NCBI GenBank assembly: GCA_016840095.1
Contig: JAEOSZ010000040.1
Coordinates: forward strand, 32,001-96,000
DNA length: 64,000 nucleotides
Source of the DNA: Candidatus Heimdallarchaeota archaeon
GTDB taxonomy: Archaea > Asgardarchaeota > Heimdallarchaeia > Heimdallarchaeales > Heimdallarchaeaceae
Reading direction: 5' to 3'
Shown piece by piece: positions 6,219-34,525 of this stretch. Position 1 is the first letter of the stretch. Every line of letters starts with the position of its first letter. Position numbers and translations under genes: made by a program. Under the pieces are notes generated by a model, which ran no database searches, had not been told where the DNA came from, and saw nothing but the letters and a program-made list of their open reading frames with translations.

Positions 6219-6632
6219 TTGATGTCAGTTATAAAATTCTTTGATGACATGGAAGTAGATAACTTCCTATGGTTATCAGCAGCATTCGTAATCTTATTCG
6301 CTTCTGGTTTTGTCATAGGATTCATTAGAGACTATTTATGGATGGTAATTCTAGCAGCTGTAGTAGCAGGATTATTCCTTATTTGGTGTTCAATGTATGT
6401 GATTATCAACAGAAAAGAATGGAAAAAGGAAAAGGAAATTCTAGTAGAATTACCAAGCTTTCCTGAACCTGATTTCTGTGACATGTGCAGTAAAGAATTG
6501 GAGGGAGGAGAAAGAAGAACTGATGGAGAGTTCTTGATAATCATATGCCCTCATTGTAAAGCTGAAAATATTGTATCAAGTGAAGCTAAGATACAAGAAG
6601 TAGAGAAAACAATAGAGGGAGAAGAAGAGTAA
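6219..6632 (+). CDS. Two-TM membrane protein with C-terminal C4 zinc ribbon
   Basis: Two hydrophobic helices, then CDMC...CPHC. Ends 2 bp before the next gene. Confidence 0.75.
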   Translation: MMSVIKFFDDMEVDNFLWLSAAFVILFASGFVIGFIRDYLWMVILAAVVAGLFLIWCSMYVIINRKEWKKEKEILVELPSFPEPDFCDMCSKELEGGERRTDGEFLIIICPHCKAENIVSSEAKIQEVEKTIEGEEE

Positions 6633-6634
6633 AT

Positions 6635-7879
6635 ATGCCCAGAGAATTTCCAATAGTTAAACCTATGATTATAACTTATGCAGTTTCTATGCTAGTTCTT
6701 GTACTAACAGCAGGATATCATCATACTCAAGGATTTATTGAGATGTTTGCTGTTATTTTCATAACTCCAGTGTGTATAATAGCTCTAGTAGGTTTTGAAT
6801 GGACTTTCAAACCTATTAGCAGATGGTTTAAGAGGAATCGTTACAATTTTGACTATAGTATATTAGAATTAGTTTGGGTAATCATACTACAAGCAGCTTT
6901 TTGTTTTGGTTTACTGCTTTCCTGGAGCAATTTCTTTTCTATAGGTAGAATAGAAGTTTTAGTTTTTAGTCTTACTACTATATTTCCTTCATCTTTCTTT
7001 ATTTTCTATCTTATATCTTGGATAAGGTATAGAAGGAAAGATGTTGTTACCAGTGATTTAGATGTAATTATCAAGAAAACTTCCTGGTTAGAATCAAAAA
7101 AGAAAATCGAAACTGAATATGATTTCGAAAGCAAAATCTTAATTCCGGGGTTAACTTCTGAGAATATTATTGATCAAGATAAACTTAGTATCACATACGA
7201 AGTTCCCTCCAAGCACAGGTATTATGATGTATTTACTAAACTCAAAATTGATTATATAGATTATCTGAAAGCTTTACGTCTTACTATGAAATTAAAGTCA
7301 GATTCTTTGCTTTCACTTAGTATTAAAAGAAGAGACACTGCATTTTCACATTTAAAAGAGGAACTAGTGATTCCTCGTTTATCTAATGTATATGTACTAG
7401 ATAGTTCAACTCCAGAGGTGTGGGGTAATCTCTTTAATGATACTTTATTTAGACAAAGCTTACTCATGCTCAGACCACATTTGGATCAATTTTCATTGAA
7501 AGGAGAATATGTTGAAGTTGTAATTTATTCAGAGAAAGCAATTCTAAAAGTTCTTGATTGGGTGATGGATCTTAATCCTTCAATGGAAAAGTTAACTGGA
7601 GAACTAGAAGTAACAAGAGCAGAAAAAATGCTTTGTTATAGTTGTCAAGATCCGTTTGACCCATTTGAAGAAATTTGTGGTAAATGCGGAAGTCCTAGAC
7701 CTAGATGCATTATTTGCTTCCAAGATCTCAAACCTGAAGTTGATATTGATGTAGTCATCTTACCTTGCTGTAAGATTTATGCCCACAAAGATCATATGAC
7801 TCTTTGGTTTACTCGAAAAACAAATTGTCCTAATTGTCATGCTGATCTTAGCAGATGGGCAAATGAAATAAGAATATAA
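6635..7879 (+). CDS. Multi-TM protein with C-terminal Zn-ribbon + RING finger (putative membrane E3 ligase 1)
   Basis: About 4 N-terminal TM helices. Tail CYSC..CGKC-GSPRPR-CIIC..PCC-x4-HKDH-x3-W-x6-CPNC. Confidence 0.8.
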   Translation: MPREFPIVKPMIITYAVSMLVLVLTAGYHHTQGFIEMFAVIFITPVCIIALVGFEWTFKPISRWFKRNRYNFDYSILELVWVIILQAAFCFGLLLSWSNFFSIGRIEVLVFSLTTIFPSSFFIFYLISWIRYRRKDVVTSDLDVIIKKTSWLESKKKIETEYDFESKILIPGLTSENIIDQDKLSITYEVPSKHRYYDVFTKLKIDYIDYLKALRLTMKLKSDSLLSLSIKRRDTAFSHLKEELVIPRLSNVYVLDSSTPEVWGNLFNDTLFRQSLLMLRPHLDQFSLKGEYVEVVIYSEKAILKVLDWVMDLNPSMEKLTGELEVTRAEKMLCYSCQDPFDPFEEICGKCGSPRPRCIICFQDLKPEVDIDVVILPCCKIYAHKDHMTLWFTRKTNCPNCHADLSRWANEIRI

Positions 7880-7920
7880 AAAAAGGTGTATGTACATATA
7901 AGATTCAAGCAGAAAAGGAG

Positions 7921-8862
7921 TTGAATGTGGTGGTTGATGTTACAGATTTTCTATATTTGATTTTTTTAGTTGTTATTGCTTTTATTGCAATTCCTATAAG
8001 TAGATCGAGAAAGAAAAAAAGAGAACAAAGAGCAAGACAACATCAAACGTATAAAAGCTATACTCAACCTCAGCCAGGATATGCTGCTTATCAACAAAAA
8101 AAAGCGATAGATTTTGACAGTATTTTGCGTAATCTTAGGATTACTGATACTTCTTCTGTCGATAGAGCTCTTAACGGAATTCAATTAGTACTTCCAAAAG
8201 ACAATCCCTATTCATTATTTTCAGATATTAAAATCATTCAACATAGAAATAATGCCATCAAAATTTATGCAACTTTATCTAGAGTTATTCCTTCTGATTT
8301 GGAAGTGAGAAATAAGCAGAAAGTTTTTTCTTCGGGCGTAAATGAAATACGAGTACCTCAATTAGCTAGTACATACAATATCTCAACAGAAAAAGGAGAA
8401 ATGTGGGCAAGCATACTATCTATCGATAAGTCTGTAGATCACTTGTTATCCTTACAGTATGAACTAGAATATTTCTACCTAAGAGAAGATTATTTTGAAT
8501 CAGTAGTTTATTCTGAAGCTGGTGTTTTCAGTGTGCTCAATTTTATCAAATTTCTACATTTCAATATCAAGAATCTTTTTGTTGATGTGAAAGATTATGA
8601 CGTTGAGCAACTAAAATGTTACAATTGTGAAGATCCATTTGATCCATTGGAAGAAATATGCGATAAATGCGGAGCACCACGACCTCGTTGCTTGATCTGT
8701 TATCAAGATTTGAAACCTTCAGAAAAACAAGAAGTAGTTCAGGTACCTTGTTGTAGTATTTATACTCACAAAGACCATATGTTAGCTTGGTTAAAGAAAA
8801 ATAAAAAATGTCCAAATTGTCACCAAGATCTAAGTCATTGGGCAAATAAGCTAATGCTGTAA
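7921..8862 (+). CDS. Single-TM protein with C-terminal Zn-ribbon + RING finger (putative membrane E3 ligase 2)
   Basis: N-terminal TM followed by a basic stretch. Tail CYNC..CDKC-GAPRPR-CLIC..PCC-x4-HKDH-x3-W-x6-CPNC. Confidence 0.8.
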   Translation: MNVVVDVTDFLYLIFLVVIAFIAIPISRSRKKKREQRARQHQTYKSYTQPQPGYAAYQQKKAIDFDSILRNLRITDTSSVDRALNGIQLVLPKDNPYSLFSDIKIIQHRNNAIKIYATLSRVIPSDLEVRNKQKVFSSGVNEIRVPQLASTYNISTEKGEMWASILSIDKSVDHLLSLQYELEYFYLREDYFESVVYSEAGVFSVLNFIKFLHFNIKNLFVDVKDYDVEQLKCYNCEDPFDPLEEICDKCGAPRPRCLICYQDLKPSEKQEVVQVPCCSIYTHKDHMLAWLKKNKKCPNCHQDLSHWANKLML

Positions 8863-9001
8863 AAGCAAAATCATCTAAGAGAAATCTATTTGTTAAACAA
8901 TTTTTAAAATATGGTTTATCTCTTAAAGTAGAACTTATAATAACTTACAAAGCTTGTTAGGATTTATTAAGATAGTATTTTAAAGCTGGAAATACATATT
9001 T

Positions 9002-9946
9002 TTGGTGCAGATGAATTGGTTAGGGATATTTGCTTTAATTTTATGTTCAATATTGTTATTAGTTTTTATTGTGTTAATTCGGTTGAGGTTATTGGATAGA
9101 AGTTATGAAAAATCTCTTAGAAGTCGAAATGAATCAGAATTTTTGGGAATCGAAAAACAGACTTCAAAATCTCTAAAACCAATTATGAATCAACTTAGAA
9201 AATTGGAATTCTTTAATGTAATAATTAATAAGAACACTATAAGAATAGAAGTTGAGGAACATCATAAATTTTCCATTTTTAGGAGAATAAGAATTAAAAA
9301 GAATTTTCTAGGTAGTATAGATATTAATGCTACACTAAGTAAGAGTTTTCCTGATCGGTTAATAATTTTTGCTCGAGGTTACCCAATGTATCATGATCTT
9401 TCAAAATTTACTATAGGTGGATTAGAAAAACTATATGATTTTTATTCAAATGATCCATCTTTCTGGGAAGTGATTCTGAATAATACTGTTAGTCAAACAT
9501 GTTTGATGAATCTTGGTTTAAACATGAAGCAATTATACATAACAGAAGACATGATTGAAACAAGTTTAGTGAAAAAGACAGATTTTGAAAATTTTGCTAA
9601 ACTGATAATAAGTTTAGAAGTAAAAATACTAACTTCTCACAAGGTTTTTGAAGAGACCGTAATAGAAGATTTGGTTTGTTATTCCTGTGGAAATCCGTTT
9701 GATCCTTTGGAGGAAGTTTGTGAAGAGTGTGGAGCTCCAAGACCAAGATGTATAATTTGTTATCAGAAGCTAGACACGCTTGAAAAAGATATTGTAGAAC
9801 TAGCATGTTGTAACATTTATGCACACAAAGAACATCTGATTCAATGGTTAAATACTAGACCAAAATGTCCAAATTGCCAGAAAAACATTCAAAAGTGGTT
9901 TAACGAGTTCATTCGATTTGAAGATCTCAAACAACTTTCAATCTAG
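9002..9946 (+). CDS. Single-TM protein with C-terminal Zn-ribbon + RING finger (putative membrane E3 ligase 3)
   Basis: N-terminal TM. Tail CYSC..CEEC-GAPRPR-CIIC..ACC-x4-HKEH-x3-W-x6-CPNC. Confidence 0.8.
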   Translation: MVQMNWLGIFALILCSILLLVFIVLIRLRLLDRSYEKSLRSRNESEFLGIEKQTSKSLKPIMNQLRKLEFFNVIINKNTIRIEVEEHHKFSIFRRIRIKKNFLGSIDINATLSKSFPDRLIIFARGYPMYHDLSKFTIGGLEKLYDFYSNDPSFWEVILNNTVSQTCLMNLGLNMKQLYITEDMIETSLVKKTDFENFAKLIISLEVKILTSHKVFEETVIEDLVCYSCGNPFDPLEEVCEECGAPRPRCIICYQKLDTLEKDIVELACCNIYAHKEHLIQWLNTRPKCPNCQKNIQKWFNEFIRFEDLKQLSI

Positions 9947-33776: not shown

Positions 33777-34139
33777 TTGACTACTACAGAAACTAAGTCT
33801 TTTCCTTTTAAGAAAGTTTTACCAATATTAGGCTTTTTTCTAGGCCCTATTTTGATTTCCATTGGAATATTCATTCAAGGAACTCTATGGAAAGTATTGT
33901 TAATTGTACTTGGGTCAATCTTGCTTCTAAGTCTGTATTTTCTAAGAAAACCTATTTCTAAAACTTCCCAAAAAACATGTTCTGTTTGTAGTGGGTCAGG
34001 ATCCATAAAACAAACAGCTTTTCCAAATCATTCTGTAAATAATTGTCAAAGCTACAAAACAATAACAAAAACCTGTGGAATGTGCAATGGAACAGGTGTA
34101 GAACCACTTGAAGAATTGGAAGAAGTAGAAGGTAAGTAA
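33777..34139 (+). CDS. Two-TM protein with DnaJ-type zinc finger (no J domain)
   Basis: Two TM helices, then CSVCSGSG and CGMCNGTG (CxxCxGxG x2). Confidence 0.75.
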   Translation: MTTTETKSFPFKKVLPILGFFLGPILISIGIFIQGTLWKVLLIVLGSILLLSLYFLRKPISKTSQKTCSVCSGSGSIKQTAFPNHSVNNCQSYKTITKTCGMCNGTGVEPLEELEEVEGK

Positions 34140-34216
34140 ATTTGATTAGTTTTTAATCTTATTTTCAATATATTTATCAGTTGCAATCTGTATATATTGA
34201 ATAAGGCAGTGAAATC

Positions 34217-34525
34217 TTGAAAACTAAAGATAAGAAGAAAATTGAAGGTGATTGCTATTTTTGTAAACAAGAGCTTAAGACTGTTGATAAAACTGAGAAG
34301 ATTCGTTTAGGTTGTTGTGATGTTGTTTCACATAAGAAAGAATTATACCAATGGTTCCTGAAAAATCAACACTGTCCAAATTGTCTAAGTGTGCACAAAC
34401 AACTAAGAACTAAATTGCTAAACTGGGGAATGAATTTAGAAAGTCCCCAAAGAAAGCATCAGAAAACTAGCACATTTGAAAAAAAAAGAAAACCAATTAG
34501 GTATGAAAAGAAATTGAGGAAGTAA
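34217..34525 (+). CDS. Small soluble RING-like protein
   Basis: CYFC..GCC-x4-HKKE-x3-W-x6-CPNC, with a basic C-terminal tail. Confidence 0.7.
   Translation: MKTKDKKKIEGDCYFCKQELKTVDKTEKIRLGCCDVVSHKKELYQWFLKNQHCPNCLSVHKQLRTKLLNWGMNLESPQRKHQKTSTFEKKRKPIRYEKKLRK

Follow-up and report, generated by a model that had tools for sequence, protein, structure and literature searches.

Three tandem genes of a Heimdallarchaeaceae archaeon probably encode membrane-anchored RING-type E3 ubiquitin ligases

RING E3 ligases are already known in Asgard archaea, and the databases label some relatives of the proteins described here as E3 ligases. The question of whether such enzymes are anchored in the membrane is raised by three consecutive genes, here called A, B and C, in a stretch of 64,000 nucleotides (the window) from Candidatus Heimdallarchaeota archaeon (GenBank assembly GCA_016840095.1, contig JAEOSZ010000040.1, positions 32,001 to 96,000 of the forward strand). 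Each encodes N-terminal transmembrane (TM) helices, a middle domain and a C-terminal tail in which a zinc ribbon precedes a RING. The first-pass annotation of the window had proposed a membrane E3 family in which a conserved catalytic tail is carried by variable substrate modules, in the manner of MARCH/RNF/Hrd1-type quality control. We consider it probable that the three genes are indeed paralogous membrane-anchored RING-type E3 ubiquitin ligases. The proposal is upheld by the RING model, by the ubiquitin, activating enzyme (E1) and conjugating enzyme (E2) genes of the genome and by the predicted cytoplasmic side of the RING, but not in its picture of modules as different domains, nor in any tie to MARCH or Hrd1 beyond analogy. 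The three co-oriented open reading frames (ORFs) with a common tail were confirmed on the + strand, as follows.

6635..7879, + strand: gene A, 414 amino acids (aa), 4 TM helices; middle domain aa 157-327, zinc ribbon aa 334-351, RING aa 358-401, short C-terminal helix; linchpin His.
7103..7615, + strand: gene A middle domain, aa 157-327, modelled alone (predicted local distance difference test score, pLDDT, 89).
7921..8862, + strand: gene B, 313 aa, 1 TM helix; TTG start, the database call beginning 2 codons later; middle domain aa 58-224, zinc ribbon aa 233-250, RING aa 257-300, short C-terminal helix.
8617..8820, + strand: gene B tail (ribbon and RING), aa 233-300.
9002..9946, + strand: gene C, 314 aa, 1 TM helix; likely ATG start at 9011; same middle domain and same tail; linchpin Gln.

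The shared tail of about 70 aa with 12 potential zinc ligands, as first described, is borne out by the three-gene alignment, in which all 12 are invariant and the tails are 53-62% identical. In gene B, the ribbon ligands are C233, C236, C247 and C250, and those of the RING are C257, C260, C277, C278, H283, H286, C297 and C300. The RING ligands thus run four Cys, two His and two Cys, with ligands 3 and 4 adjacent and H283 and H286 invariant; in the wider family, ligand 3 lies three residues before ligand 4 instead. The eight would be divided between two zinc sites. In a six-frame search of the genome, the Pfam family zf-RING_2 scored 29.9, 33.7 and 31.2 bits for A, B and C, respectively (cut-off 27.3), while only gene B was above the cut-off in an hmmscan of the three proteins. 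A structure model of gene B built from 53 sequences (pLDDT 90 overall, 92-98 in the tail) consists of a long TM helix, a loose linker, an alpha/beta domain, the zinc ribbon, the RING and a short helix, in that order. The modelled RING superposes on E2-bound RNF165 with a root-mean-square deviation (rmsd) of 1.7 Å over 49 aligned residues (Z 5.5), and the tail is accordingly computed to fold as a RING, as had been anticipated.

The face by which RINGs contact the E2 is also complete. In gene B it comprises I259, W290 and P298; among the 53 family members, position 259 is Ile or Val and W290 and P298 are invariant. All of the contacts listed by the first-pass annotation are therefore kept, although the Ile/Val lies two residues past the first RING Cys and not directly after it. 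The residues corresponding to positions 259 and 290 in the archaeal E3 srfp, I30 and W58, are required by that enzyme (PMC5654768). Chance Cys clusters or a DNA-level repeat were also considered as the source of the likeness and rejected, since 57-80% of synonymous sites have changed between the paralogue tails, which marks them as old duplicates rather than products of recent conversion. The tails are under purifying selection, with nonsynonymous/synonymous ratios of 0.07-0.21.

Hydropathy gave 4, 1 and 1 TM segments for genes A, B and C, those of gene A lying within aa 7-127, in agreement with the different N-termini noticed at first. Basic residues follow the last TM helix in the array proteins, and net charge is higher after the last TM segment than before it in 44 of 46 family members. 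Because of this charge excess, the positive-inside rule predicts that the part behind the anchor, and with it the RING, is cytoplasmic, where a ligase had been supposed to act.

A ubiquitin cascade for such ligases was found by genome search, as the first reading presupposed. One contig (C118, L012:5577-11570) carries ubiquitin, an E1, a UEV-Vps23-Vps28 fusion, the ESCRT-II genes Vps22/36 and Vps25, and Vps4; its ubiquitin has one residue beyond the di-Gly. Another (C159, L013:6866-12662) carries an E2, a JAMM protein, a RING protein of 370 aa with about 6 TM helices, a membrane protein, a ubiquitin-like protein and an E1, and this RING protein, lying inside a ubiquitin operon, is the better first candidate for a housekeeping membrane E3. 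A UbcH5b-like E2 (E 6e-28) is encoded on a third contig (C49, positions 101456-101920; L017:4457-4924, +); within the genus its sequence identity is 91-98%, and both of the loops that bind RINGs are retained. In 19 of 19 genomes of the genus, this E2 has His-Ala-Asn for the usual His-Pro-Asn, which other genera retain. Cdc48 and proteasome genes are present in the same genome. Genome-wide there are about 16 RING genes, of which 12 have predicted TM helices (1 to 8) and 10 the ribbon and RING tail.

Among 151 Asgard genomes, the tail profile matched 110 and the E2 was found in 108: both were present in 108, neither in 41, and the tail alone in two, which are drafts of 77% and 85% completeness, one with an E2 fragment at a contig edge. 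Ubiquitin has nearly the same distribution over these genomes as the E2. The profile also picks up RING-only E3s, and the genomes are related, so that the pattern amounts to about six lineage-level absences. Even so, a module with a purely structural role would have no reason to be lost together with ubiquitin. A complex of the tail with the UbcH5-like E2 of contig C49 was also modelled and scored 0.44, against 0.18 for the best control; the runs agreed in at least 97% of contacts and partner pLDDT was at least 91. The mark that it passed was reached by 58 of 80 solved pairs and by 2 of 110 mismatched ones, and at scores of 0.60 or less stood only seven solved pairs and both mismatches; a weak pass is more often wrong than right unless the pair is likely beforehand. 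Since RING-UbcH5 is a solved textbook pair, the pass may reflect likeness only, and we give this weak support little weight.

Several findings weigh against a ligase. With His instead of Cys at ligand 6, the ligand set follows neither the canonical RING-H2 (C3H2C3) nor the RING-CH (C4HC3) order. The linchpin is His in A, His (H301) in B and Gln in C, not the Arg or Lys that is typical, though not universal, and R69A impairs srfp (PMC5654768). At the loci of the relatives examined, no ubiquitin-system genes lie beside the array, and the co-occurrence described above backs the RING class more than these three genes. Lastly, the layout of ribbon plus RING as a whole is closest to the tails of GATOR2 and the intraflagellar transport complex IFT-A. 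The first reading of the tail had overlooked this likeness, together with the His at ligands 5 and 6, the adjacent Cys at 3 and 4 and the non-Arg linchpin.

In profile searches, the RING part alone scored best with the RINGs of RING-H2 E3s (E about 1e-8), among them EL5, RNF24, Arkadia, gp78 and Hrd1. The chains that span both ribbon and RING were chiefly IFT144, IFT122, MIOS and WDR24 (E 3e-7 to 3e-5; 3e-7 for IFT144 and 5e-6 for MIOS), the tail profile running end to end over residues 1251-1328 of IFT144 and 716-781 of WDR24. The best structural matches of the tail were likewise GATOR2 chains, with WDR24 at Z 6.7-6.9, 24-26% identity and an rmsd of about 6 Å. The array tails presumably share a His-x2-His ligand pair with WDR24 and MIOS. 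The RINGs of the yeast SEA complex heterodimerise and "clearly play a structural role", their ubiquitin function being undetermined (PMC9646525), while WDR24 has been proposed as an E3 (cited in PMC12507694).

Like the tails of GATOR2/SEACAT and IFT-A, that of the array proteins may accordingly serve for structural dimerisation, and the paralogues would then form a tail-to-tail membrane scaffold without ligase activity. This is a real rival to the E3 idea of the first-pass annotation, and the linchpin and the conserved extra helix behind the RING (L304, W307), a possible interface, would suit it as well. We consider it unlikely, since the E2-contact face is fixed throughout the family, active RING-H2 E3s are the better-scoring matches when the RING is taken by itself, and the sampled Asgard lineages without E2 and ubiquitin gave no match to this RING class. 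Moreover, many relatives carry only one copy at the locus, there is no propeller or solenoid, and the ribbon-RING geometry fits WDR24 loosely.

The linchpins and the aromatic C-terminal helix, which carries W307, also bear on a second alternative. The array proteins may belong to the ubiquitin system with some or all of them being inactive or weak partners in homo- or heterodimers, one RING binding the E2 while the other supports it or brings the substrate, the pattern of BRCA1-BARD1 or Pex2/10/12. Co-oriented, closely spaced genes, the presence in this genome of middle-domain copies that lack a RING and the weak pass of the tail-E2 model are all consistent with this arrangement. The full E2-contact set in all three proteins and the common single-copy loci of relatives argue against it, and a His linchpin is functional, if weaker, in the membrane E3 Doa10 (PMC7667886). 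We therefore regard it, too, as improbable, and retain three membrane-anchored ligases as the preferred reading.

The substrate side of these ligases may lie partly in the middle domain. The middle domains had been described as highly diverged, and at 16-23% identity between paralogues they are, but they are one homologous domain and not separate ones: their alignment is nearly gapless, and a hidden Markov model of the middle domain alone retrieved all three array proteins with E below 1e-34. In place of different "variable substrate modules", all three thus have one domain with the fold of CCDC47, a factor that assists the assembly of membrane proteins in the eukaryotic endoplasmic reticulum, and of TtfA; unrelated middle domains are rejected by the alignment, the shared model and the common fold. 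For the gene A domain, the best matches were CCDC47 (7tut_4, Z 12.0, rmsd 3.2 over 157 of 171 residues), TtfA (6t84, Z 11.4) and fungal CCDC47 (Z 9.4), with the next at Z 6.2. The gene B model gave TtfA (Z 11.8), CCDC47 (11.1) and fungal CCDC47 (10.1), and the next match for the domain was at 6.4. In the Atlas structure search, the domain matched CCDC47 with a TM-score of 0.71, and bacterial DUF3137-type proteins matched too; the ESM Atlas feature search returned only unnamed bacterial clusters at 0.90, with DUF3137/DUF3156 leads under 0.9.

At the sequence level, the relation is distant. A direct search of the middle domain against the PDB gave no match, and PF07946, the best Pfam family, stayed below its cut-off in all 45 middle domains (three weak matches, the best at 16.3 bits against 27.7). 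The middle-domain profile did match a profile of Asgard CCDC47-like proteins (HHalign probability 91.6, E 8e-7, 106 columns; unrelated control, 0.1), whose own best PDB match is mammalian CCDC47 (E 0.004). Such proteins were matched in 26 of 301 Asgard genomes, 13 of them above the PF07946 cut-off. The present genome has a full-length CCDC47-like gene of its own (302 aa, contig C25, L111:1486-2394, -), directly behind a small Ras-family GTPase gene; its product has an N-terminal TM helix, a globular domain and a long charged C-terminal helix, and orthologues in relatives pass the cut-off. No match to Asterix (PF03669) exceeded the cut-off in this 89%-complete genome. We read the middle domain as a recruited, diverged CCDC47 relative and not as an orthologue.

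A narrower version of the ligase reading, holding a minor share of its probability, follows from this fold. CCDC47 itself has a TM helix and then a globular domain, and its latch helices reach Sec61 and the ribosome exit tunnel (PMC12572126). A CCDC47-homologue core fused to a GATOR2/IFT-A-type ribbon and RING might likewise dock on the ribosome or the SecY translocon, the three proteins then being translocon-associated E3s that tag failed nascent membrane proteins, a co-translational quality control resembling endoplasmic-reticulum-associated degradation (ERAD) in a prokaryote. That CCDC47 ranks first, or level with the first, among the fold matches of two independent models, that the Asgard proteins matched by profile are themselves nearest to mammalian CCDC47 in the PDB and that TM helix and globular domain come in the same order all point this way. 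Even so, we find it doubtful. TtfA and the DUF3137-type proteins fit the fold equally well; the C-terminal latch and docking helices are replaced by the zinc tail (the last helix of the gene B domain ends at aa 224, where the ribbon follows); neither the Gly/Asn where the TM helix ends nor the Arg that is invariant in the CCDC47-like alignment is kept; and the genome has the separate full-length gene. Family members share no invariant residue in the middle domain, and third-position copies evolve almost freely there, unlike a ribosome-docking surface.

The history of the array is consistent with a tail that is kept while the rest varies. Relatives carry one family gene at the locus (eight genomes), two (three genomes, one cut by a contig end) or three (this genome and four others), and the array would have grown by local duplication of one gene, the tail being kept while the anchor and middle domain drifted. 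Where relatives have a single copy at the locus, as many do, gene B is its closest counterpart by phmmer score. Genes A and B have clear orthologues and are under purifying selection in both domains (ratio 0.07-0.17); for gene A, orthologues in four relatives are 57-60% identical in the middle domain and 76-78% in the tail (ratio about 0.16). Gene C diverges fast, on a long branch (1.78), with a middle domain only 15-17% identical to those of the third genes in other three-gene arrays. In the third-position genes of five relatives, the ratio is 0.68 in the middle domain and 0.21 in the tail (Fisher p 0.007, from minimum-change counts uncorrected for kinship). A recognition domain that drifts while the catalytic tail stays fixed would account for this pattern, and so would relaxed selection.

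The same genome encodes two further full paralogues and also two copies of the middle domain that have no RING, one of 195 aa (contig C155, L051:4218-4805, -) and one of 282 aa (contig C22, L010:5470-6318, -) directly downstream of a full paralogue; the RING-less copies are possible adaptors or decoys. The middle-domain profile matched 22 of 23 genomes of the genus and one sister genus, was not found in the two closed genomes of the same family and elsewhere among the 301 Asgard genomes gave only three marginal matches (E about 1e-5). The ribbon and RING tail occurs widely among Asgard archaea behind many other N-terminal parts, most of them from membrane proteins. Because the fusion is confined to one genus and its sister genus, it is a lineage-specific invention and not itself the ancestor of eukaryotic membrane ligases. 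Named database homologues of the array proteins come from Candidatus Heimdallarchaeota and Heimdallarchaeaceae.

Besides the three-gene array, which is present as first described, the locus includes a fourth co-oriented gene, conserved with the array and previously overlooked.

6219..6632, + strand: small upstream gene, 137 aa, two TM helices and one zinc ribbon.

This gene ends 2 bp before gene A and adjoins a family gene in 15 of 15 same-locus relatives with DNA on that side. No Pfam family matched it over the cut-off in hmmscan. With a nonsynonymous/synonymous ratio of 0.08, it is the most constrained gene overall, more so than the RING genes, and the protein is a candidate partner or adaptor of the array. 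One metatranscriptome contained two exact contigs of 151 bases (6324-6474 and 6525-6675, depth 2), possibly from library DNA, which prove neither expression nor an operon. A sigma-70 promoter scan, a model unsuited to an archaeon, stayed at chance level (21 against 20.8). Elsewhere in the window, an open frame at 34205-34525 (+) encodes a RING of the adjacent-Cys type and has no start codon in front; it lies directly behind an ORF of 120 aa (33777-34139) with 2 TM helices and a zinc finger, and resembles a broken or split RING gene.

The position of the array is fixed in relatives, with genes for a pyridoxal phosphate (PLP) enzyme and luciferase-like proteins on one side and two methyltransferase genes on the other. 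These neighbours (PLP enzyme, luciferase-like monooxygenases, methyltransferases) are metabolic, and with the atypical ligands they would be in keeping with a tail that senses zinc or redox state, or that binds proteins generically, outside the ubiquitin system. The RING fold, whose E2 face is intact, and a distribution that almost exactly follows that of E2 and ubiquitin make this highly improbable.

Computation thus shows the array proteins anchored by their N-terminal TM helices, with the CCDC47/TtfA-fold domain, the ribbon and the RING on the cytoplasmic side, in a cell that has the whole ubiquitin cascade. As ligases, they would use the Ile/Val, Trp and Pro of the RING to bind the UbcH5-like E2 in its ubiquitin-loaded form, and the His or Gln linchpin may allow only moderate activation, as in Doa10. 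Membrane or membrane-near substrates might be picked by the CCDC47-fold domain together with the TM helices and, perhaps, the 137-aa protein, possibly a different set for each paralogue, which is the less supported step. Tagged proteins could then enter the UEV-Vps23/Vps28-ESCRT route or be passed to Cdc48 and the proteasome.

The archaeal E3s tested biochemically are small RING proteins encoded in ubiquitin operons. In Asgard archaea, ubiquitin is bound by ESCRT-I-like proteins, yet ligases that tag membrane cargo are not reported in the searchable papers. As the array proteins include short single-pass forms and the genome has a highly conserved E2, the cargo-tagging step is directly testable in vitro. 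A GATOR2/IFT-A-type ribbon and RING tail on a CCDC47-type domain also touches the question of a ligase origin for the GATOR2 RINGs, and, if the translocon version were true, ERAD-like ligases would have been built from parts later used by eukaryotes in the PAT complex and in protocoatomer cages. The searchable literature, in which most subscription papers are not covered, yielded no paper on a RING with a CCDC47-fold domain, on Asgard CCDC47 homologues, on Asgard GATOR2-type tails or on a link between CCDC47 and TtfA.

Among known systems, CCDC47 of the PAT complex (PF07946; PDB 7TUT, 6W6L, 9I78) and mycobacterial TtfA (6T84) also consist of a TM helix followed by a cytosolic alpha/beta domain, with Z of 9-12 over 142-164 residues and weak profile homology through the Asgard CCDC47-like proteins; identity is 8-12%, Pfam scores stay under the cut-off, ribbon and RING take the place of the latch helices and the signature residues are lost. 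In GATOR2/SEACAT (WDR24, MIOS, WDR59) and IFT-A (IFT144, IFT122), a zinc ribbon is also directly followed by a RING within about 70 residues. There the tail comes after a beta-propeller and an alpha-solenoid, whereas the array proteins, at 313-414 aa, are TM-anchored with an alpha/beta domain, and ribbon and RING are oriented differently (rmsd 4.5-6 Å).

With the E3s of other archaea, Caldiarchaeum subterraneum srfp (PMC5654768) and the Helarchaeial RING E3, which ubiquitylates UEV-Vps23 (bioRxiv 10.1101/2023.07.25.550441), the array proteins share a cross-brace RING with the E2-contact Ile, Trp and Pro and a genome with a Ub/E1/E2/JAMM-type cascade. Those two are encoded in ubiquitin operons, and srfp is small and of the RING-H2 (C3H2C3) type, with Arg as its linchpin. 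The array proteins are multi-domain, membrane-anchored and away from such operons; in their RINGs, ligands 5 and 6 are His and the linchpin is His or Gln.

The eukaryotic membrane RING E3s Doa10/MARCH6, Hrd1/gp78, RNF13/ZNRF3 and plant ATL (EL5) also combine a TM anchor with a cytoplasmic RING, Doa10 with the same His linchpin. MARCH proteins have an N-terminal RING-CH before their TM helices, and Hrd1 has a core of 6-8 TM helices before its RING-H2. The order found here (1-4 N-terminal TM helices only, a soluble domain, a C-terminal RING) follows neither the MARCH/Doa10 nor the Hrd1/gp78 layout, and no luminal domain is present. The ligand pattern differs as well, and none of the eukaryotic enzymes carries a CCDC47-fold domain or a zinc ribbon; the likeness to MARCH and Hrd1 is therefore one of analogy.

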